Below, in pieces: positions 1 to 21,072 of a DNA stretch of 21,213 nt. The first letter of the stretch is position 1. Every line of letters starts with the position of its first letter. The notes under the pieces are model-generated. The model had not been told where the DNA came from. It did not search any database and worked only from the letters and a program-made list of their open reading frames with translations. The stretch lies in assembly GCA_039621445.1 (NCBI GenBank), contig CP154954.1:14426387-14447599 (forward strand). Reading direction: 5' to 3'. The position numbers were made by a program, and so were the translations under genes. The DNA is from Euglena gracilis. Lineage: Eukaryota.

Positions 1-51
1 AAGTCAGTTCAAAATGCCACAGCCCATCCCAGGGTCGCCCTCGCCTCGCAG

Positions 52-155
52 AGGCCACGGCAGCCCCGGCGGACCGCCTCGCCAAGTTCGTGGGGCAGCG
101 ACTGCCGGCGTGGGCCGTGGCCGCCGCGCAGCGGCTGCCCGCCCGCCCTTTTTGA
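52..155 (+). CDS. Probable terminal coding exon of an upstream gene that starts outside the window
   Basis: Pyrimidine-rich acceptor cctcgcctcgcag| at 51. The phase-1 frame reads (E)ATAAPADRLAKFVGQRLPAWAVAAAQRLPARPF* with mostly G/C third positions and TGA at 153-155. GC-rich putative 3' UTR follows to about 260. Confidence 0.5.
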
Positions 156-267
156 CGGCCGCGGGGCTCCGCCGCCGCCACACCGGCTGGCTGGGGTCGA
201 GACCGCGGAGTGTGGGCGCCGGGACTTGTGCGGCACGCGCACTCGAGTGGCTGCCGGCAGATTTCAT

Positions 268-405
268 TATAATTCAGAAGACTCCCCCCCCCCAGGGGGG
301 TTGGGTGTGTGGGTTGGTCTCGGGCCAAGGGGGGGGGGGTCATTTTCCACTCTGAAAAAACCAGTCAGTCACTTTTTCCTAAGAACCAGTCAGTCAGTCA
401 GGGGA
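268..405. repeat. Dispersed repeat copy with (ac)cagtcagtca motifs, related in reverse orientation to 4628-4885
   Basis: tctgaaaaaaccagtcagtcac...aaccagtcagtcagtc is the approximate reverse complement of gtgactgactggttttttcggag (about 4629-4651) and gtgactggtttttgaacagtggctgactggttttttt (about 4815-4851). Both copies carry C-run/G-run palindromes. Confidence 0.65.
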
Positions 406-559
406 GGCCACTCTTGAATTTGCTTATGTTGGCAAGGCACCATGGTGACACAATGACATTAGAGGTATGTTCTCATGTGTGGCCCAAATTGAGAAAAAGG
501 AGGCATAATTCTATCAGAAGAATGGTCACACAAATGTCCTCGAGTTTGCCTATTCCTTC

Positions 560-985
560 ATTATGAACATTTGCCAAAAAGTCTCAAAAAATTCCCAAAA
601 AATTCCGGCGCCTTCGCTCAGCCAGTTTTCATTTTCGGGCCTACCCCACCTCTGGGGCAGGGGTTTTTTAAGCCCCCCCCCCCCCAGCCCCCCCCCAGAG
701 GGACCCACCCATTTTTCCTCGAAAATGGCCAAAATTGCGAAAAATGCCAAAAATGCCAAAAATAGCACCTTTGTCAAAAATTCGAAAAGTATACTCACTC
801 CCCTCCAGGGGGCCCTCCAGGGGGGGGGGGGCTCAGCCGGACCCCCCCCCCAGGGGACCTCCCGGGGGGAGGTCCCAGGACGGAGGCCTGGGTGTAGGTT
901 TTTAACTTTTTTGTGAGAAATGTTTTTAATGGCCCAATTTTTACGGGTCCCCCCGGGTTCCCTTGGGGGACTTTAAAACAGGTTT
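560..985. repeat. Low-complexity MITE-like repeat region (aaaaatgcc units, C/G-run palindromes)
   Basis: Short tandem aaaaatgcc-type units at 722-763, caggggttttttaagcccc at 658 and cctcccgggggg at 858 resemble motifs at 19010-19093. Termini and TSD not resolved. Confidence 0.45.
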
Positions 986-1163
986 GGCTGTCGTTCCCTA
1001 ACTGCTGCATTTCTTTTTCTTGGTGTGGGATGTGAGTTTTTGACTTCGTTCAGAGGTGAGTGAGTGGGTTCCAGCCGAACTGCCTGCTGACCTGTCTGTT
1101 TATACCATTAACTTTTTTTTTCTGTATTTGCTTAATTGTTTGGGGGATCATTGGTCACCACAG

Positions 1164-4100
1164 CTGCAAGGTCTGTTCCTCCCTACCCCTGGCTGGTGAG
1201 ACACCAGAATTGTTTCAAAAAAGTCAAAATCCAAAAAAAATTTGCCATTTGTCGCTTCAGCAGGAGCGCACCTTTTTCCAGCCTCGGTCCCCCAACGGCG
1301 TGGTTGGGCCCAGACAGGCTCAGGGATGCCTTCTGCTCTCGCAGCATTATGCCCCCCCCCGATGGCACCCTTCCCCAGACCCATTACCCCCCATCGCAGC
1401 ACCGCAATCGTTCCGCTCTAACCCTTGGGCCGCGGCGCAGCGACCGCAGCCGCGGGCCTAGAGGAGCAGCGAGGCCCCTCCTTTCGCCCGCCGCCTGTCG
1501 GAAAGCTTCGCGGGTCCAATTCCCTGGCCGTTTCAAGGGGTGCAATTACTTGTGCCCCCCCACCCCTGTCTGACCAACCCATGGTGCGTTTACCACAAAT
1601 CATTGGTCATAAGCCAAGAAGAGAGGCGCCTGCTGCGTCTCTGGATTCACCAATATATTTCATTAGAAAGTGTGTGCAGCAAGTATGCTGGTCAAGTGCA
1701 GATGAGACCAACGGTGCAGTCCGTAGTTGGGGCGTCAAAAACAATCCGCTCCAGTGTACCTTTTGCACTCCGTTCGCCCGCAACTTGCTGATTCCCCGCT
1801 TCGTTCTTCATCTGTGGTTGATGCCTCCTTCCCCTCTGTTTTCATTATCTTTTTGGTGGCTACACCCGACACCCACATATTTGGGCAATCTTTGAAAAGA
1901 ACGATCATTGAACGTTTGTAAATCAGTACAATGATGAAGCAAAGCATTTTGAATTTTTTTTGTGGTGCTAATTTTATTTGGGCACATTTTCTTCGGGCCT
2001 TCAGAATTTGGGCACGTGATTTCCTCCCATTCAAAATTGTGGGTTCTCCATCACTCCGTCCGCTTGAACCACTCCACGCACCAGGCTGCAATAATACCTA
2101 CATCTTTAATCCTTCCAGGAGCTGGCCTGCCCTCATCATCGGCGATCCCTTCTTCTTGCGCCATTGTACGTTGTACTGGCCAGGACACCCGGACAATCCA
2201 CTAATATTTTTGAGCTTCTGGCTTGCAACGTTAGAGGGGAGGGGAGGCGGCTACATTCGTGTGCGCATGAAAAATATGTCTGTTCAATTGTGTGTTTTTT
2301 TGGAGGCCAAAAGTGCTTCCAGTAGCTTTCAATGGCGTGGTTATGTGTTGCTGCTGAATCAGAAAGAGTGGTGTTTGAAGAGCCCTGGAGCACTGTGAAC
2401 AATGCGGATGAGTAAGATCATATTATGTACATATTGCAAGCAAAGTCTTTTTTAGGGTTCGACTATTAAAAACAAGGTGTACTTTATTTTTGCAAGATGT
2501 ATGGTTTACGGCAGTTGAGTTAAATACCAAGTATTTGAAATTTTTCCCAGCGTTGTGTTTTCGGCAGTTTATTTGAATGTGTAATCTCGAAAAATTGTCA
2601 CATAAAACTCTCCAAGAAATGTGAATAATTTTTTTTATGTTTGGTATGATGGCAAGCAAATTCTGCTTGTTTGTTGTTAACAGTTTTCCTTCTATCCCCC
2701 TGCTTGGTTCCCTTGTTGATCACATAGTTTGTGAGAGTCGACCTTGTCTTGCAGTGTCTCCTTTCTTTCCCTGTAACTCAATGTCAGATGATGAGAGCGG
2801 TGAACGGGGTTTGTCACAACAGATTTGCCGTGTGCATGAGTCTTCGCCTTTTTTGATGGACATAATGAAACCACATTTGCATTCCAGGGCAACAGCTTTT
2901 TTTTCCCCAGAGACCCCAACAAACGGACGCAGACTCGCAGCCAAAGGTTATTTCAATACTCTTATCAATTTCAGATTTCAGACTTTTCTGCAATGAGAGC
3001 GATTTATATTTGTGTTTCTTAGGCCTTCTATATGCACAGAGCAGTCCGATACACTACCCCAATATGGTGAAATCGAGGCCTGATTTTGCCTTTGATGTCG
3101 GGATGGATGGGCCATGGCCAAGTTGACAGTCGGGGAGCATGTTAATTCACATGATGTGCATTTTGTGCACATCTAAAAATCTCGAAATTTTTATTTTATT
3201 TTTTTGCACATTTGAAGTGCCTTGTCCCCACCAGGTCGTGCACATCCCCCGGCGGTGTTCCCAGTGGGTTCTCGAAACAGTCGCGGCAGCGGAAGTGGTG
3301 CCGGAAGAAAGAGCGGCAGAAGACATCGTCCCCGCGGCACCACCCACACCACCCGACGTGCCAACACCTCCCCGTGCCGTGGCCGACAATCTTGTGTCGT
3401 GGCAGACCAATCAACCACGTTGCATATATTCCACATTGCACAATGCCATTCCTCCCCAATGCCAAATATGGGCAGAATTTCAAGATCCGCATGGGGCGGT
3501 TATACATTTTTCATGTTCATATTTTTTTGAATTTTCTATTTTGTCAGAAAATTCATCGACCTAAAGGTCACCATTTTCCTTTGCCTGAACGTTTCTCAGC
3601 TTTCTCATCTTTCTCATCTTTGACCATCTTGAAGCATATGTCAAATTTTTGGAGCATTTTGCTTCGACGCCTTTTGCTTTTTGAAACATGTGTGTGCTGT
3701 CCAAGAAATGGGAGAGCCCTGCATTTTGTAATCAAACCAAGGGCCCCGTTAGGGGCTATACATTTGCGCACCTGCATGGGTTTTTTATGAACAATTTTCT
3801 GATTGTGCAGGTGTGGCCCGAGGGGAAAGGCGTGTGTATGCTTTGGGTACCCTCCGCAACTTTTGTTGTATCTTCCCAGCAACACTGAATCCTCTTCAGG
3901 TCGGCCCGCTCCTGCAGCATGTTTTTATTTTGCCATGAAATGTAGCGCGTAAATGTGGTACGTAAATGTAAACCTACGTATAAATGGATAAATGTTTGTA
4001 AGTGTAGTGTGTTTTATTTAGGCATGAAATTTGGCATGTAAATGTGGTATTTAAATGTAAACCAACGTATAAATGGAAAAAATGTATGTAAATGTGGTGT

Positions 4101-4500
4101 GTTTTTTTTATTTGGACATGAAATGCAGCATGTAAATGTAGTATGTAAGTGTAAATAAAGGTATAAATGCCTAAAGGTGTGGTAATGTAGTGTGTTTTTA
4201 TTTGTACATGGCCTGAAATGTCGCAGTGCGGCTTTCGGCTGTTTTTCCGCCGTCCCTCCCTAATGCAACCTGGCCACAGGACGGTCCCACCCTCCTCCCC
4301 TCGACCCCACCCTGCAGTGCGTGTGCTGTACCAAGCTGAGCCTCTACGTCCACGAGCAGGAGACGCCCCAGGACAGGGCGTCTCCTCATTTGGAGGGACC
4401 CCACCCTCTGGGGGGGCAGCCACCCAGCAGCCTGTTCCCGGACCCCGCTCTCCCCCTCGACTCACTGCTCGGCTGCCCAGTCTGCCAGCACCCTCAAAGA
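1164..4500 (+). CDS. Tentative upstream exons of the F-box-like gene (candidates 1164-1195, ~1261-1539, 2119-2165, 2911-2946, 3235-3398, 4280-~4500)
   Basis: GC-rich islands bounded by AG/GT: ccacag|..|gtgag, ccttccag|..|gtacgt, ttttccccag|..|gttatt, ccccaccag|..|gtggca, ccacag|. Exons 2119-2165, 2911-2946, 3235-3398 and 4280 onward join in one open frame (ELACPHHRRSLLLAPL-DPNKRTQTRSQR-SCTSPGG...PTILCR-RSHPPPLDPTLQCVCCTKLSLYVHEQETPQD). The start codon, the frame of 1261-1539 and the donor leading to 4917 are unresolved. Confidence 0.35.
3920..4211. repeat. Degenerate tandem repeat, about 90-bp unit, about 3 copies
   Basis: The unit start tgttt(t)attt..catgaaat recurs near 3920, 4009 and 4100, with a partial copy near 4192. 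Internal taaatgt motifs. Confidence 0.75.
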
Positions 4501-4627
4501 AAGCCCAACTCTTATCAAAAAATTCAAAATTTCAAAAATAAAAAGTTCAGTTTTTAAAAAGGAATTCGAAAAAATACCGCCTGTGAGCTGGACCATTCCG
4601 TTGCTCAAGATGCATCCGACCCGAACG

Positions 4628-4885
4628 GGTGACTGACTGGTTTTTTCGGAGTGACTGACTGCTTTTAGGCTCCGGACCCCCCCCTCCCCGGGGTGGGTCG
4701 GCCAGGATACCTGGGGCGAATATTTTTTGACCAAAATCCTTTGTATTTGGTCATTTATGGCCGAGTGACCAAAGTGACTGATCCCCCCCGGGGGGGGGAG
4801 AGGGCAGGAACTGGGTGACTGGTTTTTGAACAGTGGCTGACTGGTTTTTTGAAATTGGAAGAATACCCCCCTCCCCCGGGGGGGT
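4628..4885. repeat. Intronic repeat with gtgactgactgg motifs, same family as 268-405
   Basis: Repeated gtgactg(actgg)tttt motifs and cccc..gggg palindromes near 4783-4798 and 4866-4884. Confidence 0.65.
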
Positions 4886-4916
4886 AAGCAATGGTATGCG
4901 TTGCACCCCCCGGCAG

Positions 4917-7683
4917 GTCGTTTCGCAACGCCCTGCCGCCGAAGGACCGCATCCTGGCGGAGGACGAGGAGGAGCCGCCTTGTACGGGCCCCATCAACAC
5001 CCGCCTCCCCTACCGTGACCTGGTCGTTGCCCTGAAAGGTGCGCCGGTGCGAGTTCTCTCGTGCTGTTCACCGCGGGGCAAGTTAACCGTTGTCTTCAAT
5101 TGACCTTGTTTTGTCTCTTTTTTTTTTGTTCAACGCTTCGAGTGGTTCCATGTGATTTCCTTTGGGGCAGTTCAACCAGGGCCACAGGGCCAAGGGCCAA
5201 CAGACGCCCAAACTGTCAACTGCAAAATTATTATTATTATTATTATTATTATCCGTAATCATAAACCGGTGCCAAAACGTCAGAAAAATGTGTTTTCGAC
5301 TTTTTAATTTTTGACCCTGTCGACCCACGGATCAGCCTTTGGCCATCCCTTGGCCCAAGGGCAGTCTTTAGGGGAAAAAGGCTGATATCCAACAGGTAAT
5401 ATTTTTTTCAGTCGTCCGTTCCGATGGTGGTGAAGGTGCGGATATCCCTGAAATCCACCCGTTTTTTTAACCCAAAATACGGCCGTTTTGCGCCATTTTT
5501 TCCCTGTGGATTTTTCATTGAATGTGCTCCAACAGTATTTTTTGTCTTTTTTCTTTTCTTACTGCCCTGCCGTCATCGGGCAGGTCTGCGCCACTGACCC
5601 ACACTGCCAACCCCTTACCCTCCAGGGGGGCCGGCACTGCACTGCAACTCCGTGCAGCCTCCCCGCGTCCTGTCCCTCAGAGCCGGCAACGGGCCGGCTG
5701 AGCCCCCTGGAGCGCTGCGGGACCGACGTGCTGGATGCCATCTTTGCGTTCTGTGACGCGGTCAGGAGGTTTCTGAGGCCCGAAGGCCCCAGCAACCATC
5801 ACCCACCTGCTATTTTTTTTTATCCATCCACAGCTTTCATGTCTGCGGTAATCAAATTGCCCCAGCTAAGCTGGTTTGAAACCAAAATTCTGGGAGTTTA
5901 ATTTATTTGTGGGAATTGGGGGCCACATTTGCATTTCAAAAACCGCCACCATTGAGCCTTTAGGGGCTCGCTTGCAAAAAAAAAACTGGTTAAAATTTGC
6001 AAACCATGCACATCACGTTTTTTTTTTTTACACAGTATTTCATTTCCCCGCCGACTCCGGCCTGACAACCTGCAGAGCCCCCCCCCCCCTTGATGGACCC
6101 ACCCCCAGCAGGGGAGCCGTCGGGGGTCCTGCCCACACCACCACACTTCTCCTTGCGGGGCTGGGTGCGTGGGGGTGTTCCAACAAACCCCCCTGGACGC
6201 GGTGGACCTCATCATCTGCCGCTTCGTGTGCCCGGCGTGGTGGGCCGGGGCCAGCGGCCGGCTGTACTTCGGCGTGCTGGAGCAGAGCCGGACGGGCCCC
6301 CGGTGTGTGACGTCGGCCCGGGGCAAGTGGGCGCATGGGTGTTGCCGGTCGTTTATTTCGGGGGACGGAAAACCCAGCGTGTCACCGTCGACACTTTGCT
6401 CATTCATCGATTTTATTTATGGGGTTTGGTGGGTTTTTGAGTGTGGGTGGGTGAGTCGGGTCGCTGGACCCCCCACCCCTCCTGCCACCGCGGAGGGTGG
6501 GGAGCGCTATGGGACAATGAAGCCGAGCCGAGCCAAAAGCCACACCAGGGGTTTCGGCTTGTTTGAGGTGCTGTTTGGATGGGTGGGTGGGTAGGTTGAC
6601 CCCCGCGCGGGTTTTATGGTTGCTTGGGTTTTCAATAATAGTGGGTGGGTGGCTTTGGGCCCGGTCCCCCCCCCCCCAAGTGAATCACTGGCTTCATCCC
6701 ACGGCTCACAGAACCGTGCATTTCATTGACATTTCGATAGAAATATTTCGAAAGATTATGTATTTTTTGTGTGGGTCTTTCTGCGAATAACTGTCCAAGG
6801 TCGCCCACTCCTCTGTGTTGCAGGCTGCTGGGCAAGGTCATGCAGGCGCAGGTGCGGGTGGCCACGTCCGGCTTCCGCACGCAGCACGAGGCGCACTGCT
6901 TCCTGGAGGCCAAGTGCCTCCAGCTAACCCCCCCCCCCCCAAATAATACCCCCCCGGGGAATTATTTTTTTGCCCGAAGTCCTGGCCCGAAGGGGGGTAT
7001 TATTTGGGGGGGGGTAATAGCACCCCAAAATTTTCGAAATTTTTCGAAGTCCTGTAAGACCCAAAATAGCATACAAAGCCCCCCCTTTGGGGTCATTTTT
7101 TGTCCTTTCTCATAAAATGTAGCATTTTTGGAGGCCAGGTGATCCAGAAAAATCGATGTTTTTCGTAATTTGTTGTCAGAGATTGTCAGAGAGACATTTT
7201 TACCCAAAATTTCAGGTCAAAATCCGGGTCGTCGGCCCGAGATTGGGGGGGGGGTATTAATTCGGTGGCCGAAGTCGGACCCCAAGGGGGGGTATTATTT
7301 GTTTTGGGAAGGTAGGCCCAAAAGCTGCCAAAAAAGGCCAAAGTGTGGGCAAAAGTGCCCAAAAACGGCCAAAAGGAGTGCCAAAAAGTGGCTAAGGGTG
7401 GCCATGTTGTTGGACAGTGGTGGGCAAAAATGGCTAAATGTGTGGCAAAAGTTGACAAAAGTGCACAAAAGTGGCCAAAAGTCATCTTTGTCTCAGAACA
7501 AATTCTTCCAATATTGTGGCCGGGACCCCACCTCCAGTGTTCAAACCCGACAAATCCCGACAAATCCCGGCAAATCCTGTCAACACCACCAAAATGACAA
7601 GTGCCTGGAAGTGCTTGCTGTCGGCACAGGAGAAGACGGAGCGCCGACGGTCGTCGAAGCGGCACGACCAGGCATCTGCTTAA
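4917..7683 (+). CDS. F-box-like protein, C-terminal exons 4917-5038, 5681-5759, 6201-6302, 6824-6915, 7613-7683
   Basis: Exons join in frame: SFRNALPPKDRILAEDEEEPPCTGPINTRLPYRDLVVALK-EPATGRLSPLERCGTDVLDAIFAFCDA-VDLIICRFVCPAWWAGASGRLYFGVLEQSRTGPR-LLGKVMQAQVRVATSGFRTQHEAHCFLEAKC-LLSAQEKTERRRSSKRHDQASA*. Introns 5039-5680 (gtgcg..ctcag) and 6303-6823 (gtgtg..tgcag) are GT-AG and phase-consistent. LERCGTDVLDAIFAFCDAVDLIICRFVCPAW matches the F-box pattern L..LP.E++..IF.+L...+L.....VC+.W. The last exon is less certain. Confidence 0.78.
5228..5252. repeat. (TTA)n microsatellite
   Basis: About 8 tandem TTA units. Confidence 0.9.
5760..6200 (+). other. Euglenid-type nonconventional intron
   Basis: Borders c|ggtCAG...CTGgacgc|g: Y|R at both ends, CAG at +4..+6 (5763-5765), CTG at -8..-6 (6193-6195). 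The ends pair (caggaggttt with aaacccccctg; cccagc with gctggg further in). There is no AG at the 3' junction. Removal restores the F-box motif in frame. Confidence 0.85.
6916..7612 (+). other. Probable second nonconventional intron, repeat-filled
   Basis: t|gcctcCAG...CTGgaagt|g has Y|R borders and paired ends. The ccag...ctgg core (6920-7608) is flanked by aagtgcct (6912-6919) and aagtgctt (7609-7616). The exact boundary can slide within aagtgc. CAG lies at +6 rather than the usual +4. Confidence 0.55.
7315..7580. repeat. Short tandem repeats (ccaaaaagtgg-like units, then cccgacaaat x3)
   Basis: Degenerate 10-12 bp units over about 7315-7482, and cccgacaaat/cccggcaaat at 7546-7575. Confidence 0.75.
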
Positions 7684-7710
7684 CGGTTGACAGTCCCCCC
7701 CGGAGGCGAT

Positions 7711-8105
7711 GCTGGCAAGTCCCAAATTGATTAATTAATTGGGGCTAGTCCCAATTTGACTGTTGGAAATGAGACGCCCCCTCCCCCCCTGGCGAGGGTC
7801 CCGCTAACAACCGGAAAACCGGGACCCACTGACCAGAAATTTTTGGAACCTCAAACCCCACCATTAATGCACATTTCTGGCATTTTTTTTTTGGGATTCT
7901 GTGGAACAAAATGAGGCAAAGAAAGCTCATTAAAAGTCTTATTTCCATCTCCGGGGGGTAGCCCTTGAGGAATTTTTTTCCAGTGGGAGGGACCCCCGGA
8001 CCACCCAGTCCAGGCCAGTGGCGGGTGGGGGGGGGTAAGGCTGGGGAGTTCTAGTGGATAGTAAGTGGTGTTGGCCACTGGACCCCCTTAAGCAAAAGCT
8101 TGGGC
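7711..8105 (-). other. Candidate nonconventional intron on the minus strand, ending in a dispersed-repeat terminus
   Basis: On the minus strand cat|gccCAA...TTGccagc|atc gives Y|R borders, CAA at +4..+6 and TTG at -8..-6, joined in phase 0 into an open frame. Segment 7969-8102 resembles 20941-21072. Confidence 0.4.
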
Positions 8106-8376
8106 ATGACCGCATGCCGGCGGAAGTGCGAGCTGCTCAGGCTGTGCCGCGGTGCTGGCACCGCTTCTTTCAAGTGTACTCATCATTTTTGGGAAGAAGC
8201 GTGCGTGTACTGCAGTCCAACACAACAGCATCAGAAATGTGCTACGATTTAATGAGTGAATGGTGTCCGAACACACTACATACATACACACGTCATACAA
8301 TACACACGTCATATACAATACATTACATAGACACACACGTCGTATGTATGTATGTATGGATGGATGGATGGATGCC

Positions 8377-8441
<65 letters not shown>

Positions 8442-8444
8442 GCA

Positions 8445-8475
<31 letters not shown>

Positions 8476-9696
8476 ATGTATGTATGTATGTATGTATGTA
8501 TGTATGTATGTATGTATGTATGTATGTATGTATGTATGTATGTATGTATGTATGTATGTATGTATGTATGTATGTATGTATGTATGTATGTATGTATGTA
8601 TGTATGTATGTATGTATGTATGTATGTATGTATGTATGTATGTATGTATGTATGTATGTATGTATATATGTATGTATGTATGTATGTATGCATGCATGCA
8701 TGCATGTATGTATGTATGTATGTATGTATGTATGTATGTATGTATGTATGTATGTATGTATGTATGTGTGTGTGTGTATGTATGTATGTATGTATGTATG
8801 TATGTATGTATGTATGTATGTATGTATGTATGTATGTATGTATGTATGTATGTATGTATGTATGTATGTATGTATGTATGTATGTATGTATGTATGTATG
8901 TATGTATGTATGTATGTATGTATGTATGTATGTATGTGTGTATGTGTGTATGTGTGTATGTATGTATGTATGTATGTGTGTATGTGTGTATGTGTGTATG
9001 TGTGTATGTGTGTATGTATGTATGTATGTATGTATGTATGTATGTATGTATGTATGTATGTATGTATGTATGTATGTATGTATGTATGTATGTATGTATG
9101 TATGTATGTATGTATGTATGTATGTATGTATGTATGTATGTATGTATGTATGTATGTATGTATGTATGTATGTATGTATGTATGTATGTGTGTGTGTGTA
9201 TGTGTGTGGGCATGTATGCATGTATGCATGTTTGCGTACCGAAGCTCTGGAGCTCTGAAGAAGCAGAAGCTGGCGGCGCCCCCTGCCAGTCGGCTATTGC
9301 CCCCTCGCAGTGCGGAAGGGAATGCGGTTCTTCTTCCCGTACGTAGTGTTCCAGAAAGGGATGATGGCCACGCAGCTGAGTTGATAACATATAAATTCCG
9401 GTCAAAACTATCAAATATATTGAGGGGGGTGCATATCGGGCCCAGGCGCCCAACCGACCCCTCAAATAGCCTGCTAATTTTGATTTAATCCACCCCTTCC
9501 TGACCAATTGACACATGCCCACCACCCCAAGTGCTTCGGTGGGGAGGATGTCTCCTTTTTTAACTAGCCATCTTGGCTGAAGTTGGGGGCGGTGGCAGCC
9601 ATCTGCGGAGTGCGTCAATACCGTAGTCTTATGGGCAAGGGATCCAGTGAGTTCGTTTCACCCAAAAGCAGGAAGTGGGGGCTGGTGGACTTCGTC
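8088..9696 (-). CDS. Tentative multi-exon gene of unknown function (exons 9696-9662, 9602-9523/9526, 9375-9240, 8209-8106 or to stop at 8088)
   Basis: GT-AG junctions (cacacag|, |gtgaaa..tattgac..ccgcag|, ctcag|, |gtacgc..ctgcag|) are phase-consistent and give TKSTSPHFLLL-DGCHRPQLQPRWLVKKGDILPTEALG(V)-LRGHHPFLEHYVREEEPHSLPHCEGAIADWQGAPPASASSELQSF-VHARFFPKMMSTLERSGASTAAQPEQLALPPACGH. An alternative frame in 9375-9294 (CVAIIPFWNTTYGKKNRIPFRTARGQ*) cannot be excluded. Further upstream exons are likely near 10060-10232 and beyond. Confidence 0.42.
8342..9230. repeat. Compound microsatellite (TATG)n with (GATG)n, (TCTG)n and (TG)n blocks
   Basis: Directly visible, about 890 bp. It accounts for all six long YVCM/HTYI ORFs and lies in the predicted intron 8210-9239. 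Confidence 0.98.
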
Positions 9697-10989
9697 CTGT
9701 GTGAATTACATGCAAGATGCGTTGTGCTTCCCCAGTGTATTTTCCCAACACACTTTGCTTTGATTTCAATCAAACTCTCAATGTGAGTATTCATTTTGAA
9801 GGCACATGTAAATTTTGTATTGTTATGAATGGAGTCCATAATTTCGTAGTTCATCACTGCTTGCCTGAGAATTATTAATTTGATTCATTGAGTATAAACC
9901 TGGGATTGCATGATTCATCCAATGTTCCTTGCTTTTTTTGACCATATTCAATTTTAATAATATATTGCTCGTTGTTTCACCAATGAATCAGCTTAACCAT
10001 GCGAGTGCATTTTTGCTTTCCTTTTTTATTTCAATCCCGATCAAAGGTGGTGGATCAACTGCTGCGTGCTCCAGACAAAGCACGCAGTATTAACGTTCGG
10101 CCTTCGGAATTGTGAGCTGTTCCCCGTCCCGTGGACCGCGGTGTTGGCTCCCCTGTGACGAATCCCCCGTTGGCATCTGCCAGCCTCGTCTGAAATGCCA
10201 TATTGTCATCCCTTCCACCGGCGATGCAGCTGCAGTATAGCAATCAGCAAACAGCAAATCAGGAAAACGGGTATAACATTCAGCAAACAGCAAACCAGCA
10301 AAAAGGAAATCAGAAAGGATATAAAAATAAAAAAATGTTAGTTTTGAGCGTTGAGTTTGAGCATTGAGTCATGCAAATGAACGCCTGAATAATGAGATGG
10401 ACGCTCATTGCAATGTTTTCTAGGTTGGAAAATCAATAGAAAACAAATATATGAGATAGGCTTTTTTACATCCACCTGAAAGCGGTTACCTTCTTATTGG
10501 AAAACGTGTATTCACAAATTGTTCTGACACAATACCGAAAGATCGATGAACCTAGTTGCCTTATGAAATCCAACAAGTCAGTCCCCACCGTTGCTGTCAG
10601 TCCCTACAGCTAATTGTTGTGTTGGCCCCTGTTCCAAAGCGAGGCTGCAGCCTCCAATTTGCTTTTCTTTGCACTATTTTTCTTTCGTGATGTGTCTGTC
10701 TGCCCGCCCCACCCGTCTCCCCCTCTTGGCCCCATCCATTGACCCGTCCCCTGTTTTAACCCCAACTTGGTGCCGTACGTCGGGCCCATTCCGCTGCTTG
10801 TTGACGTTCCCGGAGGGGGGAAAGAGCTGATTTGCTTTTTCCCCTCCTTTGATGACAGGACCTTCCTGCGGGACGTATATTATACCAGTAGCGTTCACAC
10901 GTATGTTAAACATATTGCTTTAATAAATACATGGATGTTATGTATAATATAGAGAGTAATGTATGCATACAACATGCAATGCATGCAAA

Positions 10990-11075
10990 GTAATATATAG
11001 TATATATGTATATGTATAAATACAGTATACATATAATGTGTGTATATATACATGTATACATATACATATATACTA
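10990..11075. repeat. Degenerate (TA)-rich simple repeat
   Basis: tatata/tatgta/tataca runs. Confidence 0.7.
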
Positions 11076-11493
11076 ATACTAGCAATTGTATGGACCCCTC
11101 CAGGGGGCACACATAGTTCCAGGGGGGGTCCTGACAGTTCCCATCTGGTCCAAACTTTTCGTTCCATTTCGCCTGGGAAGCGTGGCGAAATTGCACGTTT
11201 TTTTTTTGTCTGATTTGGGAGGATATGTGCATACTTGTAGGAATGGGGTTAGGCTGGGATTGACGGGCCGTAAACTGCCCCCGATTATGAAGACCGGAAG
11301 TTAGGTGGCCGGTTGGGAAGATTTAACCCGTTTTGCCCAAAGAATTGCTGGAATTTGGCCTAAATTCTCCCCAAAATGGTCCGGAATGCGGCCTAACCTC
11401 TCCCTAAATTCCCAACAATGAGATCCTCACGGCAATTGGGCCGGGACCCAAACCCCAACCCAGAAAATAAACTCCGACTGTCACCGAAAGTGG

Positions 11494-11495
11494 GT

Positions 11496-11574
<79 letters not shown>
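11494..11574. repeat. (TG)n microsatellite
   Basis: Nearly uninterrupted TG run. Confidence 0.97.
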
Positions 11575-11575
<1 letters not shown>

Positions 11576-12674
11576 ATGCCACTGGTATATACACAGGCGA
11601 GTGCTGCCGTTGAAGAATAGGATTGGTTGATTGGCAACCAGGAACCATATGGACACCCTCCCGGGAATTCCAGATAGCTCCTCCAGGGGGGAGGGGGTCC
11701 AACTAATTCCACCTGTCATGCACACATACCCAACACACAGTGGTTGGGGTTGGGTGGTTCGATGTGTGTGTTCACTCTTTGGGATCGTGTGGGTGAGTTC
11801 TCCAGGAAAATGGGACGGTGGGTTTAGTTTGGGAAAGGATGAATCTCTGGTGGGTGATTTTCGTGGACTGCTGTGGTTGGGGACCATGGAACAATACTGG
11901 ATTCCCCCGAAAACCGTCCCATGCATTGAAAAATAGCTGCGCATTTTACAACCCCTCTGTGGTCTTCTCAAAAATATCGTCCTTAATAATGCCAGAGTTG
12001 ACGTTGCATATTAATTCATTTAGTGCCTCCTGTGAGCACCAAAAGATGTATCTTTTGTTGTTTGCCCCCCCCATAGGCAAGCACTGGTGTGGTGAGGCCA
12101 CTTCTGCTGGCCTCGTATATGTATACCAGCCAAGTGCAGCCTTGACTGTCCTGGCAGTATGCTGCTGTGCCATGGTGTTATTCTGGTTCTGGGTCAGATG
12201 AGAATGACATATGGAGGTGGTGTTTTTGGTTACGATAAAGTGCGGTGAAAATTTTCACCACATCTGGAGTTGGAAGAGAAAGGAATATGCACAATTTACC
12301 ACTACCAACATACACAAGAACACCACACAGTTTTCCCGAAGAAAAATGTGTGAGGAAAACAGGGTTGTTCTGCGGGAAGGTATTCAGCAGTTTTTCGCCA
12401 ACTACCCCGGCTCAATACCCCCGCCTCGTGCCCCCCAATTTGCCCAACTCCCAAAGTTGGCCCTCGGCCTGTTGGAGCAAAAATGGTCCGTCCGGCCAAG
12501 GAGCCAAGAGTGGGCGGGTGGGTGCCTCACCAGCCGCAGCCAGTCAAAATCTTAGTTGCTCCGACCAGAAAATAAATCACAATCAAACGCCTGAACAAAG
12601 AACAAGGCCTGACCCACACCCACAGCATAGGGCGAGGAATCGGGTGTGTATCAAACTGGTTCCGACAGAATATG

Positions 12675-13160
12675 CAGGGGGGGGGAAAAATGCGTTTCAC
12701 ATTTTTTCGCATTTTTGCGCATTTTTTGCGCATTTTTTCAAATTTTCCAAAAATGCGCATTTTTGCGCATTTTTTCGCATTTTTTGCGCATTTTTTCGTT
12801 TTTTTCGGCGCATTTTTTTGCTTTTTGGCACATTTTTTCGTGACTTTCCAAAAATTTCGCATTTTTTGACCATTTTTGCAATTTTTTGCAAAAATTTGAA
12901 ATTTTCGACTTTTTTTGAAACTTACATTTTCCTCATTATTCTACATAATTTCTTCAAATTTGGTGCCATTTTTGCATGTTTTTGGGTAATTTTTGCATTT
13001 TCGTGATTTATGTGCATTTTTTCTCAGATTTTGCACATTTTTGCGCATTTTTTCCAAAAATGCGCATTTTTTGCGCATTTTTTTGCGCATTTTTGCGCAT
13101 TTTTGCGCATTTTTGCGCATTTTTTCCGAGGCCAGGCGAGCGCATTTCCCCCCCCCCCTG
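12675..13160. mobile_element. Non-autonomous TIR element (MITE) with CAG...CTG ends and a 7-bp TSD
   Basis: TIRs ca(g)9aaaaatgcg and cgcattt(c)11tg. gaatatg lies directly on both sides (12668-12674, 13161-13167). The interior is made of tttttgcgca repeats. Confidence 0.88.
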
Positions 13161-14334
13161 GAATATGGCGGTCAACATACTCAGGCGTTTCTGGGCCATC
13201 TTCTGGAATCCGCCCCAATTATCTGGCTTCCACTTTCTGAATGGTTGTCTTCCAAGCCTTGTGAAAGAAACCATCCAAATGTTGGGAATACAGGACAAGG
13301 CAAACAAGGTACCCATGGCCTGGGGTCCGTGTCACACAGCCCGCAGCTACCACACGACCACACTGTCTGCTTGACGCCCTCCTCTTGGGAGGAGGCGGGG
13401 CGGCCACCCCGGATCTCCAAAGAGGCATGCCCGTTTGGCGTGCGAACCTTCTCGGCCCTCCACCCCTGGGCCTGTGCTACGTCCCCTCCCCTGACTAAGC
13501 ACCCCCTTTTTCTTCCCCAGCGTTTTAAAGTTCATCTTCTTGGGGAGGTTTATTTTGTGTGCCTTTTTGAGAGAAATTCCTCGAAATTTTCGAATTTTCA
13601 AAATTTTCTGAAGCCTGATTTGGAAGATATTGTTAACAATTGGTTTTTGTATCCAAATGCCTGCAAATGCAACAGTGAGCCAAATTAAGGGAATTTTACT
13701 GGTGCGAAGCACCGGTTTTTTCTTACAGAAAAAAATATCTCGGCACGCCTCCCCCTCCCCTGGTTCTTGCCCGTCATTTCCGGTTCTCAGACAGGGGGGT
13801 GTTGGAATTAGGTTGTAAAAAATATTTCTGGGATTGGCGGCAATTGTCTGGTGTTGTTCTTTTACACCTGCAAATGAAGAAGTTAAAAAAGAATTTGGGT
13901 TTTTGGTCAATTCTGCTGGGTTCGAAAATTTGGGTCCATCAAAAGGGCATAAGATTCGAACATCCAACCTCCAATTCACTGTTTTTTCAATATATTTTTG
14001 CTAGAAACCACCAAGGGCTTAATTTTTATTGTTTTCTTTGACTAACTCCGGCCTTAAAATGAATTTGTATTTATTTTTTTCTGTTGGGGCTCCCAAGAAC
14101 AAGAAATTTCTTACTCCGACTCCTGTCCCCAATTTGCTTTTTATGGACTTGATTAACATGTTTTATGTGATTTGTCGTCTGGATGGTCTCCTACAAATCA
14201 GGATTTAGTAGTTTTTTTTTTTATCTGGTCTTCAGGTAATTTTTTATATTTTTATCTCCACCTCTGCGTTTATGTAAAAAAGGGTGATGCTCTTGTGTCA
14301 CCACACCAACCCAGAATTTTTTCTAGTTGTCGTG

Positions 14335-14530
14335 ACCTGGGGGGTGGGCGGGTCCCCGGGTCGGCCCGAGTGGGTATCCCCAGAGGCAGGATTTTCTTCT
14401 ATTTCAGCGTGAACCGCTGAAGAAAAATTTGGACCCCAAAATTGACCCCCCCCCCAAAAGTGGGTCCACCAACTCCCCCCTCCCCCCCCCCCAGGGGACC
14501 CCAGTGGTTGGGTCTGGACCCACCCCAGGT
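14335..14530. mobile_element. MITE-like inverted-repeat segment
   Basis: acctggggggtggg(cg)ggtcc is inverted relative to ggacccaccccaggt. No TSD found. Confidence 0.45.
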
Positions 14531-16043
14531 GCTCTCTCCCCCCAACAGACGCGGGACATTTGTTCAATTTCGTTCAATCCAAGCGGTTCTATTGGCTGGC
14601 TCCCGTTCAGCCACGTCCACTCCCTTCGGCAGCGCCGGCCCTCTGGCGGACCACCACTGACCCTTTGGCTGCCATAGGCAGCCACTCCCGGACGAACGCT
14701 TTCCTGAAACCAGGAGGGGGGAGTGTCTGCCCAAGCCTGGTCACGTAGTTGCCAACGGCGATGAGGGAAATGAAAATTTATAAAATAAAAAATAAAATAA
14801 AATGATTTTATTTTTATTGATTATTTTTATTGATTTTATTGAAGCGTGTAATGTCTTTCAAGGGGAACCGCGGCAATTTGTGTTCTGGAGGCTCTTTCGT
14901 CAACTTTTCATCATTGGTTAGGCACCTCAGGAAAGCCTTCCCGGATGCCTAGAACACCTCCGACTGCTGTGTGGACCAGCGGGTTGTCGCATTTTCGGGC
15001 ATGCCCGTCTGCTACAACAGCAACCATCTTTATTTTATGATTTTTACTTTGTATGCTTTTCACATTCTGCATTTTTGTTTGCATGTGACGGCACCCATCA
15101 ACAGAGTTCGCCCAACACAGTTCACAACAGTGTTTACCCATGGAATCCTTGCCTTACACACACGTAGGGATTTTGTTATTGATGGCGGGCTGTGCGAGGG
15201 AGGGCGACTGCCCCCCCCCCCCCACCAGGAGGGTTGGCCGACTAATTTCATTTGAGTTTGGGTCTGGGTCACGGTGCACCGCTGGTTTTGCCATTTTTCA
15301 ATTATTTTTTAAATATGGGACGTTTTTTGAGAGTTTCTAGGTCATCCTGGAGCACTTCCATCAATTTGAAACCAAATTCAATTTGAGGGCGGGCGGGCTT
15401 AATTTTTAATTTCAAAGAAGGGGGTATTGTACAATGTGGTACAGTGTTTTTTTGGATGAAAAGTATTTGCATGTACAGTATAATATTGATCGAGCAAAGG
15501 AAGCAATGAGAAATAGTGTGCAATGAATACATTTTTCCTAAAGCACTCATTGCACATTTGACGTCTGGCAGAGAAGTGTACATCCCAGGGGATGTACAAA
15601 GAATTTATTTCCGATTTGCATTTTTGAATTTTTTTGCATTTTTGTGGTAATTTGTTTTGGCATCAAGAGCCCCTCTTCTTCAACTTATGCAAATGTTGCC
15701 TAAAATCTTCCACGTGCTAACGTTCATATGGGCATGCCGCCATCCCCTGCCATCACAGCATTGGTCGCGCGAAAGCAGCGCCAGTCAGGGGTTTACTCAA
15801 CGACCCCGGGAGTGTTCCTGTGGATTGTACCCCCAAAATGTGGTCGCAGACGGTCAAGCAATGTATGTTAGTGAAGGTTGTGCACGTTTCCGCCTCAAAA
15901 TGTTTTTGGATAAGAAACCCAATCCACCTGGATTCGGGCTCTTTTTGGCGCCAGCCAGGCCTCGCCCGGGCTGCCAACTGGGACAAGTCGGCGGGCCAAC
16001 TGCCAAGTTTGCATGTTAATAATTGCGAGGCTAAATTCCTAAA

Positions 16044-16235
16044 GCCTAGAGGGGGGGGGGCAAGGTCAAAAGCTGGGGGGCTAAGTTTGTATGCAATGAG
16101 CAGGCGGGCCAAGCGCCTGGCGTTTGGCACTTCGCTCCGCCAGACTGGGCTAAAGTCACCCTTGCTTTGTATCAACAGACCCTTGCTCTCTGAAACCCAA
16201 TGGCTGGTGGGGAGGTCGACCCCCCCCCACTAGGC
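16044..16235. mobile_element. MITE-like inverted-repeat segment
   Basis: gcctagaggggggggg is inverted relative to cccccccccactaggc with one mismatch. No TSD found. Confidence 0.45.
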
Positions 16236-16608
16236 GGAAATACGCTTTCCGCATGTTTCAGAAAGGCGGATTTCCACCTTCCGAAAATTTCAAAATGTTA
16301 AAGGGGATGCCCACCCCGCAGTGCTGGAACTGCATGGAACTTCAGCCCGTTTTATCCGCATGCAAACACCTTGAATGATTTACCGCATTTTTTTGGTCAC
16401 TGCTCGATACTTCCAGCCAGAAGTGGTCAAATTGGCCCAAGGAGGCAAAAAGTCGCACAAAACGACCAGAGTTGCCCTTGATGGCCCGAAACAGCCAATG
16501 AGGCAAAAACAAGTTGTTTATATGTTTGTTTAACGGCCTGCAGTGCCGCGCACTGCCATGTAATGCCACGCAGTGCCCACACATTGCACTAATTGGTGGG
16601 CATCCCCA

Positions 16609-16729
16609 CAGATTTCTTTTCGTCCCGAGGGAATTTTTCCTTGTCCAGGTTCTGCAGTGGGTGGGACCCGGCCTTCTCGTACAGCCTATCCCCCCCCCCC
16701 GGGTGTGGGGTAGGGGTAAGAAACCCCTG
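16609..16729. mobile_element. Short CAG...CTG element with a 6-bp flanking direct repeat
   Basis: Ends cagatttctt and aagaaacccctg form an imperfect inverted repeat. tcccca lies at 16603-16608 and 16730-16735. Confidence 0.45.
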
Positions 16730-17227
16730 TCCCCAGGTCCGCTACTGGACTCTGGCCAATCCCTCGCCAGGGGGTGGCTATTTTTGTCTGGTGCATCATG
16801 TTTTGTTTTGTCATGTTTTCACATGGCCATCCATCCTCGGGAAAAATTCCTGAACTTTTTCAGTGGGTGGGCAAGACTGTTTGATTTCTCAGGTGGTGTT
16901 GATGGGATTAATTTACTTGAAATTTCTTGCTTGTCACTGAGACGTAAGTGTGGACAATACGTCCCCACTTTTTTGAAAAGATGTTTTTGTGACATTTTCT
17001 CGAAGTTTCTGGGGTTTTGTTTGCATTAATTTTTGCTGTTGCTTTTCTCGGAGAATATGCATGTACATTTATGCTGCAAGGAAGGAATGAAGCCCATTCC
17101 AAAAAAAATGCCAAAATGCACCCGCTTTCAAAGTTTATGCAAATTTTTTTCTGCCTCCGGCGTAGGTGTGAGCTGTCCTGATACCCCTTAAGGTCCTTGT
17201 CTTTGGCCACAATATATAAGCATCCAT

Positions 17228-17465
17228 ATATTCTAAATGCCCCTTCCGAGGGGGGGGGCATTTAGAGTTTGCAGGGGGTCAAAGTAGTCTTTTTGTGTTA
17301 ATGATGGTATAGGGTTAGGTGCGCGACTTAGGGTGTTAGGTGTACAAGTTAGGCCTAACCCTAACCCTAAGTTGCGCACCTAACCCTATTCCATCATTAA
17401 CGCAAAAAAGAGTTAACTGCCCCCTGGACACTCTAAATGCCCCCCCGGGGGGGCATTTAGAATAT
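17228..17465. mobile_element. Foldback (whole-length palindromic) element with central TTAGGG/CCCTAA units
   Basis: atattctaaatgcccc and ggggcatttagaatat ends. The arms stay complementary to the centre (ttaatgatggtatagggttaggtgcgc vs gcgcacctaaccctattccatcattaa). A TA TSD is possible. Confidence 0.85.
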
Positions 17466-19123
17466 GGCTGCCATATATATTATATGTGTGTATACATGTA
17501 ATTTTAAATTGACATATAAGCATAAACATTTAAATTCCCTCTATCTTCTCTGTCCCCTTGCTTTGCAGTCGACCACGGAGAGTTCCACTGCGCATATTAT
17601 ACCGCTGAGAGAACGTCCCTCAATCATTTCCCAGTTATCTGGCTCTTGTTTTGGCTTCATCCCTCTTCGCTTTGATCTGCAAAAGCATTTTTCCCCACCT
17701 TGAGGAGCTTTGTGAAGCCGTAGGGGGGGAACTTCCTGTTGCACAGAAACAGATTTGCAAAGACTTTTTTAGCTGGAATATTTAACTTCGTATGGGAAAA
17801 GACTTCAACGTAAAATATTTCACATATGTCATTCTGCAATTATGATATGAAGGCCCCATTTGGACCAATTTTTTACCTCACTGGTTAATACCTTGTTCCG
17901 TAAGATGCTCCAGAGAAGTGCCATTTTAACAAAATCAACAAAAACGAAGAGTGCATCACAACAAGGGCAGCCAAATCAATGCGCTCCGGCTCTGAATGCA
18001 AGCTTTGTTGGACGTGCAGGAGCTTTCACTCCTCCCCTGGAATTAGGGAGGGCGGACGTTCCGATACCCACCAATATTGTTGTACATTAGTTGACGACTT
18101 TCCTGAGTTTTTGTTTGTGTTTGTGCTTGTGCGCGAAAGATCAAGGATCATCTTGCTGATTTGTCAGCTCTGTTTATTTGTTTTATGGGTACATGGGTGT
18201 GCAGATAAATGATATCAGTCAATAATCATTCACAGTTCGCTGATTCTTCACCCTGGGTCAGTGTTACAATTGCTGATTTGTTGTTTTTTTTTTTTGCACA
18301 GCAAGTGTGTTATCGAAATTTTGTATTTTTACCTGAGCCTTGAAGTACTACACATGTATTCTTTCTTTGTTGTGTTTCTTTGTTATGTGAAGAAAATCGG
18401 GGGTTTCAAAACTGTACCCAGCTTCCAATTTTTATTGAGTGCCACCCATTGCCTTTGCCAGTCTTCTTTGATTTTCCTCTCGGCGGCGGATAATGTGTTT
18501 AGCTTTGGTTTAGTTTTAGTCCAGCAACCTTTGTTTTTGGTGATATTATTGACCACCAAACTATATCTCAAGTTCTTTCTTAGGCTTACTAGGGACACCG
18601 GCATCTTCCAACACCGACAGGTGGGCAGTCACCTGGATCCTGACAGTTCCTCGGGGGCGACACTCTCCCGGGAATAAATGCAGCAACCCCCCCCCCAACG
18701 TGAGGGAGGTTGCACTGCAGGATTGGTCAATGATGATCAATTTTGGACCACTTGCAGTCCCTTTCCCGCCCGATCAGAGGTTCCTTAAAGACGAGGGCGA
18801 GCACCCACTCACCCCCCCCACCCTCAGCCCCACCCCCCCCATGGGAGTGTCTGAAGACAGCTAACTGCTGTTGGGTGGTCAAATTTGGATCCAAAACATT
18901 TTTCGGCATTGCATTCAGAGGGTACCTCTGGGAAGGGGTTCACCTCCTGTTCCGTGCGAGACGCCGAGAAACGGGACCTCGAATTGAGCTGAAAAAGTTA
19001 GTCCTGGCCCCCTCCCGGGGGGGCTTACCGTAGGAGGAGGTTCGATCTCGAACGTTCGAGCTCGAACCTCCTCGAACGTTTTTAAGCCCCCCCTTCAAGG
19101 GGGGGAAGGGGGGGGACTTAAAA

Positions 19124-20633
19124 CAGGGGCAGGGAGATATTCCGGTCCGGAATAAACCGGAATAAACCGGAATAGCGAAAACCGGAATAAACCGGAATAA
19201 ACCGGAATAACCGGAATAAAAGTGCCAGCCAATAGCTTGAAAATTCTGCAAGACACAAAGGCAATGAAGGTGATACTTTCAGGTTTCAAAGCCACAAGAG
19301 CAACAAAAGAGCGCAAGCATAGCACAATCGGCATTTGATATCAGGAGCACACCTTCACTTTGCCTGTTTCTTCCCCTGATTGAATGCATTTTTTGTTTGG
19401 ATTTTATCCCCACTTGTGGGGCTGCACTTAGTGAATGTTTGTCCCTGAGTTCTTTCCAAAGGGACATGAACTAGAACAATATCTACGCTGTGATCTTTGG
19501 GGGCAGGGATCCCATTGGACAAAGCGAGGGGGTAATAACACTCTCAGGCGACCTAACTCGCACTTCAGGTTTTGATTTTTGCATTGCGTTTAAGCGCAAC
19601 GTTGCATTCTTTTTGAAGCCCAGCGGTGAAACCCACCCTTTTGGCCCTCTGGTTCCGCGGGGACCTTCCACGGTAGCACGTGTATCGTTTGCGGTTGTTG
19701 GGACCCAGGAAACAGGCCCTTTTGGTGTTTTTAAGCCTGTGCTCTATTTTGAAAGGGTTCAAAACTCCGGGGGGTTTAGGCTCTGCGATCTGTCCATTGA
19801 AGGTTTGCCTGCCCCAAGACCTTTCGCTTGGTACCGACAGAACTCAGCCACATTGCACAGCTCTCTGAAAATCGGCGGTCGCATTTTCCGACCCTGTTTG
19901 GAAATTCGAAATTCCTTTTTTCAGCTCCCATGTTGCCCATCGATTGAAAGCTCTTCTCAAGGGCTTTCAGCAGATGGCCTTAGATTTCTGCCATGCTGCA
20001 TGGTATTCTATTTCCCCAAAATTGGCCGAATGGAAATTGTTATACAAAAAAACCCAATTTCTGGCAGAAGACCCACCAAAAGACTGGCCAGATGTGCTTA
20101 CCACATGACTACAAACCATTTTGGGCACTTTTGGGCAGTTTTGATTTTGGGTCCTCCACACGCCAGCTTCAAGCCCGAACCGGCGTCACAGACACCGGTT
20201 CGGGTGTGAAGCCGGAGCCCCCAGACATGGTTTCAAAGCTAAGTGCGAGTTAGGTCGCCTAAGACACTTGGCAGGACAATTTTTGGGAAGGAAAAAAAGA
20301 CAGCGGTGCCAGGGACCCGCCTCAAGAGAAAACCCCAAGAACCAATTTTCATCGGCTTGTTTTTCCCAAAAAGGCCGGGGCTGTGATGTGATGTGATGAT
20401 CCGCATCACCAAGTGCGAAGTGACCACTTGGCGGGGTGGGGCAACCCCATTCGTGTAGCCCGGGTGAGCGCCTCGGCCCAATTGTACTTCGAAAAAATCC
20501 GAAGTCCATTCAGACAGGAATTGACCGGAATAAACCGGAATAAATTACGGAATAAACCGGAATAACCCGGAATAAACCGGAATAAAACACCGGAATAAAA
20601 TTTTCGGCCGACCGGAATATCTCCCTGCCCCTG
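19124..20633. mobile_element. Non-autonomous DNA transposon with CAGGGG termini (hAT- or P-like)
   Basis: Perfect 24-bp TIR caggggcagggagatattccggtc / gaccggaatatctccctgcccctg. cttaaaa is duplicated at 19117-19123 and 20634-20640. ccggaataaa subterminal arrays lie at both ends. No transposase ORF is recognisable. Confidence 0.92.
19542..20264. mobile_element. Inner TIR element nested in the CAGGGG element
   Basis: Perfect 20-bp inverted repeat aggcgacctaactcgcactt (19546-19565) / aagtgcgagttaggtcgcct (20241-20260), extending 4 bp outward with one mismatch. cac flanks both sides (possible 3-bp TSD). Confidence 0.78.
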
Positions 20634-20940
20634 CTTAAAAACGTTTGAGGACCCTCCTCGAACGACCTCGAACGACATTCGAGGAGGGTCTCGAACCTCC
20701 TCGAACGACCTCGAACGACGTTCGAGGAGGGATTTTAAGTGGACCCCCCCGGGAGGTGGGGGGATCCGCTGGCAGGGCTAGCCAGTGAAAGTTTTTGTTC
20801 CAGTTGCTGGCGCGAAGTGCCGAAAAGATTTCTGGGACCCCCCAAAACTGGCCAAATGCCCACATTTGGCCATTTTTTGGACAAAGTCTGCCAAAACCCC
20901 ATTAAAAACCTCACTTCTACCTCGGCGCACAGCACCAGAG

Positions 20941-21072
20941 GGAATTTTTTTTCTTCAGTCGGAGGGACCCCCGGACCCCCCCCTTGGAAGGGGGGTTCTA
21001 GCTGGTCCATTTTTTCCCAGCTCGTCCAAAATTTTAGCCAGTGGACCCCCCGGGGCCTTAATCAAAGGCGTG
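20941..21072. repeat. Dispersed repeat terminus shared with 7969-8102
   Basis: ggaatttttt..cagt.ggagggacccccggacc and gcca.tggacccc..ccttaa.caaa.gc.tg occur in both places in the same order. Confidence 0.7.

Follow-up and report, generated by a model that had tools for sequence, protein, structure and literature searches.

A nonconventional intron of Euglena gracilis composed of a CAG...CTG-ended element and exactly one copy of its flanking 8-bp repeat

The nonconventional (non-spliceosomal-type) intron described here (positions 5760-6200) interrupts a nuclear protein-coding gene in a stretch of 21,213 nucleotides of the Euglena gracilis genome (hereafter the window; assembly GCA_039621445.1, contig CP154954.1, positions 14,426,387 to 14,447,599 of the forward strand). 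The intron equals a 433-bp element, which begins with CAG and ends with CTG, plus exactly one copy of an 8-bp direct repeat, because identical 8-mers abut the CAG and the CTG on their outer sides. Its two spacers, of 3 and 5 nt, sum to the length of the repeat, so that removal of the intron at the RNA level exactly undoes an insertion that duplicated 8 bp. For this intron, the description as an element plus one 8-bp target-site duplication, removed without a scar as 3 + 5 = 8, is well supported. The best reading of the locus is that the intron arose by an insertion that duplicated 8 bp, and we consider this origin probable. The features of the locus, numbered from the first letter of the window, are the following.

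5679-5759, forward strand: upstream exon of the gene for an EG_transcript_15752-like protein (joints 5036->5679 and 5754->6196; tblastn with protein P0002, 100% over 5680-5763).
5755-5762, forward strand: left 8-bp direct repeat GACGCGGT, exonic over its first 5 nt, with its last 3 nt forming the intron's 5′ spacer.
5760-6200, forward strand: nonconventional intron GGT-CAG...CTG-GACGC|G, 441 nt, C|G at both borders (placed by the RNA joint and the code of PMC12501133).
5763-6195, forward strand: putative inserted element CAG...CTG, 433 bp, with internal A/T homopolymer tracts and no open reading frame (ORF) with a Pfam match.
5763-5772, forward strand: 5′ terminal inverted repeat CAGGAGGTTT, 8/10 against the reverse complement of 6186-6195.
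6186-6195, forward strand: 3′ terminal inverted repeat AACCCCCCTG (reverse complement CAGGGGGGTT), from end alignment and the minimum-free-energy fold.
6196-6203, forward strand: right 8-bp direct repeat GACGCGGT, whose first 5 nt form the intron's 3′ spacer and whose last 3 nt belong to the exon.
6201-6302, forward strand: downstream exon (joints 5754->6196 and 6301->6823; P0002, 100% over 6196-6303).

Both copies of GACGCGGT were found by direct reading and by a repeat finder (family D11), and they match at 8/8 positions. The CAG (5763-5765) abuts the left copy, the CTG (6193-6195) abuts the right copy, and the sum of 3 + 433 + 5 nt is that of the element and exactly one 8-nt repeat. A preliminary description of the window, made from its letters, had claimed the 8-mer directly outside CAG and CTG and had called the ends of the element imperfect inverted repeats; both observations were confirmed, with CAGGAGGTTT and CAGGGGGGTT matching at 8/10 positions.

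Public sequencing data were aligned over positions 1-8250 of the window and comprised transcript contigs (X15 and X16), raw RNA reads (X21, about 5% of the run) and DNA (X1, one of 14 DNA runs containing at least half of the sampled words); the transcript-like and RNA runs share the species label, and the nature of the runs was judged from their alignments. A joint from 5754 to 6196, which skips 441 nt and at which 8 letters fit both sides, is present in one contig of X15, in one contig of X16 and in 13 raw reads of X21 with 10 start places, and the depth of the intron in X21 is 0. The two transcript-contig runs and the raw reads thus bear out the claim that the intron is removed from the mRNA, which has a single GACGCGGT because the joint removes 441 nt. 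RNA alone leaves the junction ambiguous over 5754-5762, and the rule of 3 and 5 nt sets the end of the upstream exon at 5759. The downstream exon starts with G at 6201, the purine demanded by the splicing code, and ends at a conventional GT-AG intron (6303-6823). Removal of 441 nt (3 x 147) fuses two open frames of the same phase (...DVLDAIFAFCDA|VDLIICRF...). When proteins were searched with the downstream exon as query, the search returned P0002 at 100%, a protein of 268 amino acids that is a Euglena gracilis transcript product by its source label, and P0003 at 94%, a relative of 267 amino acids from a second euglenid transcript. P0002 maps onto both flanking exons at 100%, and both proteins read FAFCDAVDLIICRF across the splice junction; as the spliced codons are identical in P0003, removal leaves no scar, and the proposal that the intron is the element plus exactly one 8-bp repeat holds.

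The intron at 5760-6200 is a typical euglenid nonconventional intron. The genetically defined code of these introns is 5′-N3CDG-/-CH′GN5-6|R, with one cut 3 nt before CAG and the other 5 nt after CTG, both measured from the terminal helix of the inverted ends (PMC12501133). Nine cut placements are compatible with the mRNA. GT/GC-AG borders occur in 0/9, and a single placement (1/9; 5760-6200, shift 5) has CAG at +4..+6 together with CTG at -8..-6; its borders are C|G and its first exon base is G, in agreement with the nonconventional status first assigned to the intron. CAGG and CCUG are paired in the minimum-free-energy fold and partly in the centroid, the fold of the whole 441-nt intron is no more stable than those of shuffled sequences (z = -0.41), and only the terminal helix of the predicted fold is taken to be meaningful. 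The 3 + 5 spacer geometry invoked in the preliminary description is experimentally established, since in knock-in tests a change of +1 or -1 in the 3-nt donor spacer was not tolerated, and in the 5-nt acceptor spacer +1 was tolerated at the cost of some loss (PMC12501133). The likeness to other euglenid nonconventional introns (Nomura et al. 2025, PMC12501133; Milanowski et al. 2014, PMC3935182) covers the lack of GT-AG, the positions of CAG and CTG, the 3- and 5-nt spacers, the purine, the pairing ends and the removal itself. There is no difference in kind, and a perfect 8-nt repeat that has been retained is the sole oddity of the 5760-6200 intron.

This perfect repeat places the intron among the 'slidable' introns that the knock-in study left aside. 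That study counted 649,158 junctions in E. agilis, 71.8% of them nonconventional, and reported that 84.4% of introns were slidable and that these were excluded from motif discovery (PMC12501133). The repeats are not needed for splicing, as introns that are not slidable are spliced when knocked in at a foreign site (PMC12501133), and therefore any excess of repeats at junctions needs a historical cause, in the way the introns arose.

How far chance could account for the repeat depends on whether a real junction is taken as given. Exact flanking repeats of at least 8 nt were counted blindly in 2/21,026 CAG...CTG pairs of the window (30-4000 nt apart), the two being 5763-6195 and a poly-C 10-mer. 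By itself this window-wide count is not significant; it is significant once conditioned on a real splice junction. Over 110 mismatched pairs of 5′ and 3′ junctions the mean number of matches is 2.46 of 8 positions, or about 0.31 per position, and our own arithmetic from this rate puts an 8/8 match by chance at about 1e-4 per intron. One explanation would have 5760-6200 be a nonconventional intron of the ordinary kind, its origin ancient or unknown, with a coincidental 8-mer. The blind count agrees with this explanation, as does the presence of several hundred thousand such introns per genome, from which a few perfect 8-mers would be expected by chance. However, the 8/8 match was met among only 11 introns, the other 10 introns also have an excess of repeats (p about 1e-3 to 1e-4), and 84.4% of E. 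agilis introns are slidable (PMC12501133); we attach hardly any credence to coincidence.

The excess was measured on the introns of two genes in the window, 2 conventional and 11 nonconventional, which were placed by read joints, one loose end placed in the window, and a protein map. Inverted ends of at least 7/10 lie exactly at +4/-6 in 7/11 of the nonconventional introns. A frame-anchored test, with placement by the 3/5 rule where the terminal helix allowed it, compared 5 exon and 3 intron nucleotides at the one junction with 5 intron and 3 exon nucleotides at the other. The in-frame identities per intron were 1, 4, 3, 6, 3, 5, 8, 6, 6, 3 and 3, a sum of 48/88, against 92/363 matching positions outside the frame (33 surrounding positions per intron). 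The permutation p for the 11 introns was 1.2e-4; when the 5760-6200 intron was left out, 40/80 positions matched and p was 1.2e-3. The maximum-likelihood repeat window over all 11 introns is exactly -5..+2. An anchor-free test took, for a given length L, the best-matching window close to the leftmost cut and compared it with re-paired junctions in 50,000 permutations. At L = 8, 0/50,000 permutations attained the observed sum of all introns, and without the 5760-6200 intron p was 0.053 (L = 4), 0.0041 (L = 6), 0.00012 (L = 8), 0.00026 (L = 10) and 0.0035 (L = 12). Junction repeats are real at this locus, on a scale of about 8-10 nt, in a sample too small to fix the length at 8 without the index intron. 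Of the enrichment at 8 that had been predicted, the excess on the 8-nt scale was recovered in the 10 other introns, and the exact length of 8 depends on including the 5760-6200 intron.

The prediction of an 8-nt repeat also holds in a published intron of recent origin. Direct repeats of eight nucleotides lie at the junction of intron 4 of gapC in E. agilis strain ACOI 323, a nonconventional intron whose absence from other strains shows it to be recent (Milanowski 2016, PMC4770533). Its repeats are longer than those of the other introns of the same study, and it is the sole strain-polymorphic, recently gained nonconventional intron described (PMC4770533). The likeness covers the type of intron and the length of the repeats, and the authors infer double-strand-break repair rather than a target-site duplication (PMC4770533).

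Other nonconventional introns of the window carry partial repeats. The interval 7669-8102 holds a 434-bp CAGG...CTTG element whose flanks, GGCACGAC and GGCATGAC, match at 7/8 positions (stretch 7661-8110); this element is nearly the same size as the 433-bp element, yet without sequence similarity to it. The flanks of the neighbour at 2805-3251 (CGG...CCG), GCGGTGAA and GCGGTGTT, match at 6/8, and those of the neighbour at 4374-4935 (CAGGGCGT...ACGCCCTG) at 5/8. A micro-exon of 35 nt (7626-7660) sits between two nonconventional introns, and its allele in the transcript contigs and one DNA contig differs by A>C at 7647 and by the loss of 3 nt at 7650.

A number of observations weigh against an origin by insertion with an 8-bp duplication. 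At the intron 7665-8106 the mRNA takes the T of the right copy, so that in the allele of the window the cut is off the exact 3/5 site; because the adjoining micro-exon is allelically variable, the transcribed allele may differ from that of the window here. At the intron 6908-7622 the junction repeat (TGCTTCCTGGAGGC and TGCTTGCTGTCGGC; 6897-6910 and 7612-7625) matches at 11/14 positions, extends 5-6 nt upstream beyond the frame and does not fit a simple 8-bp duplication. In-frame matches number 4/8 or fewer in 6/11 introns, and without the 5760-6200 intron windows of 9-17 nt fit slightly better, with -5..+2 ranking 13th at about 1.2 log-likelihood units below the best. A blind scan for CAG...CTG elements having repeats of at least 7/8 and inverted ends of at least 7/10 found 2 instances, against 0-1 in displaced-flank controls, and has no power in 21 kb; relaxed to repeats of at least 6, it found 8, against 3-14 in the controls. 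The intron-less allele with a single 8-mer that had been foreseen did not turn up in X1, the only DNA run aligned: the joint 5754->6196 occurs in none of its contigs, and one contig covers 5499-6952 with 0 differences. This check covers 1/14 suitable DNA runs, and an empty allele could be missed.

To these points are added the lack of relatives and of an enzyme. Self-BLAST of the 21-kb window found no second copy of 5763-6195, and alignment of the 433-bp element with 8 other intron elements in both orientations gave a best local score of 27 against a shuffle maximum of 24, with most scores within the null; the families of intron ends that had been anticipated were not visible in the window by either approach. 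The 31-mer depth of the element in X1 is that of single-copy DNA (90.5 and 84.7, compared with 67-89 in other single-copy bins), and the element therefore does not belong to a recently amplified MITE family (MITE, miniature inverted-repeat transposable element). Pfam searches of 10 ORFs, chosen from the 58 of at least 110 amino acids in the window, found no transposase domain and two chance-level matches only, and the transposase with matching ends for which the preliminary description had hoped was not among these 10. The literature searched contained no hAT element for Euglena, nor a hAT link to Euglena introns. The known E. gracilis transposons that duplicate 8 bp are Merlin elements (two families), with ends that start with GG (PMC8101967).

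Repair of a staggered double-strand break, in which filler DNA is captured and the overhangs are filled in, would yield a direct repeat with neither a transposase nor a mobile element. Such repair has been proposed for the eight-nucleotide repeats of the new gapC intron (PMC4770533), and it accords with a 433-bp element that is single-copy and without a family and with the longer 11/14 repeat of the intron 6908-7622. Yet it offers no reason why the captured DNA should have CAG...CTG ends, inverted at 8/10 positions and abutting the repeat, nor why repeats should peak at the 8-nt scale. The 3 + 5 geometry could rescue the repair model by acting as a filter, if only 8-bp duplications around CAG...CTG ends can be removed scarlessly. 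Weighing these points, we regard repair as an unlikely source of the intron.

If the intron did begin as an inserted mobile element, hAT would be the best guess at its superfamily, from the 8-bp duplication and the CAG-type termini, and it is a tentative guess that we hold to be doubtful. The hAT assignment of the preliminary description was not supported, given the ORFs scanned in the window and the literature searched. The terminal consensus of hAT elements is YARNG. The 3′-end of the element fits this consensus, and its 5′-end, CAGGA, misses it at position 5; CAG and CTG are in any case no independent evidence for hAT, because the splicing code demands them too. The 8-bp duplication abutting the termini that is typical of hAT elements is present in GACGCGGT (8/8), and the repeated family typical of hAT-type MITEs is absent within the 21-kb window and by X1 depth. 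The maize Ds elements, which are non-autonomous hAT elements, are spliced out of transcripts. They resemble the element in that they duplicate 8 bp, have termini of the CAG type, carry inverted repeats that are short and imperfect, and measure a few hundred base pairs, and differ in that the 433-bp element has no family copies, no transposase is known in the host and the 5′-end CAGGA is off the consensus. Ac/Ds elements have an 8-bp duplication and short terminal inverted repeats (TIRs). The TIRs are given as 11 bp and Ds1 as about 400 bp long (PMC3260210).

A transposon of another superfamily that duplicates 8 bp, such as Merlin or a P-like element, might be considered in place of hAT. E. gracilis has two described Merlin families that duplicate 8 bp of their target (PMC8101967), and no hAT element is reported from it in the literature searched. 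The inverted repeats of all Merlin families start with GG, however (PMC8101967), in contrast to the termini of the element (CAGG.../...CCTG, not GG...CC), and the ends of the intron, GG...GC, do not fit either. Merlin was set aside as a source on these termini in spite of the fitting duplication length, and a non-hAT transposon as a whole seems to us very improbable. Reverse splicing of an excised circle was also considered and rejected, as it would be expected to carry the spacers along and to form no target repeat, a misfit to the 8/8 match.

A broader parallel is provided by introns derived from transposons, among them the introner elements of Micromonas and Aureococcus, which are likewise short non-autonomous elements with TIRs, target duplications and removal at the RNA level, and in which the target duplication helps to restore the reading frame (PMC11282704). 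Those introns form large sequence families and are removed by the spliceosome, the element supplying one of the two splice sites and a 3-nt duplication the other (PMC11282704). The 433-bp element, in contrast, is removed according to the euglenid code, is flanked by an 8-nt duplication and has no family detectable in the window.

The product of the host gene is a 268-amino-acid protein with a weak F-box-like motif. The F-box match of P0002 (PF00646, residues 121-145, E = 0.0016) scores 18.7 bits and lies below the gathering cut-off of 20.5, and Pfam found no F-box match in P0003; the F-box label given to the gene in the preliminary description is therefore to be softened to F-box-like. In three RNA sets, loose read ends reading ATTTTTTTTC(G) lie directly before 2754 (29 + 13 raw reads in X21), and these look like the spliced-leader acceptor of this gene. 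A poly(A) loose end at 2215 marks the end of the upstream gene.

Other repeats were noted in the introns of the window and beyond them. Beside the intron 6908-7622, CAAGTGCCT is repeated at 6911 and 7598. The intron stretches 276-825, 4401-4675 and 6876-7700 reach a k-mer depth of 1e4-2e5 in the DNA run, compared with about 70 for single-copy DNA, and are repeat families of extreme abundance, capped by C-runs/G-runs. One abundant repeat is a perfect 23-nt inverted repeat (6932-6954 and 6992-7014) with TAA on both flanks, which is MITE-like with a duplication of 3 nt rather than 8 nt. The nonconventional intron 8135-9291 contains a (TG/TA)-rich microsatellite of about 950 bp (ATGT/ATGC-type units, about 8300-9250), and a related tract of 85 bp lies at 11494-11578. 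Self-BLAST also revealed palindromic stretches at 17211-17481 (the largest, about 270 bp at 77%), 10998-11075, 19017-19093 and 20652-20731. The region 10156-21213 has no convincing coding exon by ORF length, third-position GC or Pfam; in this region, which lies outside the read data, short-exon genes may be missed.

For an origin by insertion with an 8-bp duplication, a simple course of events can be proposed. A DNA element with short imperfect TIRs would enter an exon at a staggered 8-bp cut, and fill-in of the cut would yield an 8-bp target-site duplication. Existing RNA-level machinery would then remove the insertion without a scar because 3 + 5 is 8, and the insertion would therefore be neutral from the start. 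Position 6 of the target would have to be a purine, and under the 3/5 placement the back-splice junction of an excised circle would read ...CTGGACGC|GGTCAG.... The 8-bp cut itself may be what the spacer geometry reflects, or a geometry fixed beforehand may let only insertions that duplicate 8 bp survive in exons.

An origin of euglenid nonconventional introns from MITEs, and the TSD-like (target-site-duplication-like) repeats at their junctions, are already published. A MITE-like origin was proposed in 2014 on the inverted ends and the 'TSD-like' repeats (PMC3935182) and has been repeated since (PMC6221363, PMC12501133, PMC12621601); a review calls CAG/CTG TIRs and describes 'TSD-like' repeats as frequent at junctions (PMC11282704). 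The origin and the removal of these introns are stated to be open questions (PMC6221363, PMC12501133). An equation of the 3-nt and 5-nt spacers with the duplication length was not found in the literature searched by full text; figures and supplements, which lay outside this search, may contain a distribution of repeat lengths. No earlier work that links the insertion scar quantitatively to the splice geometry was found, and the 5760-6200 intron shows this link in its cleanest form.

As a general rule, the same reading has modest independent support, from the 10 neighbouring introns and one published case. That most euglenid nonconventional introns began as CAG...CTG-ended insertions with 8-bp duplications, their spacers matched to an 8-bp staggered cut, is a serious possibility, and one that we stop somewhat short of calling probable. 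If it is general, a loose hypothesis becomes a sharp and cheap genome-wide test on several hundred thousand introns that are already public, and the search for the mobilising enzyme narrows to enzymes that cut with an 8-bp stagger. Wherever the exon offers a purine at position 6 of the target, such an insertion would then be a ready-made, scarless intron, and the rule would explain the Y|R consensus that both borders share, the 84% of introns that are 'slidable' and the eight-nucleotide repeat of the youngest known intron.

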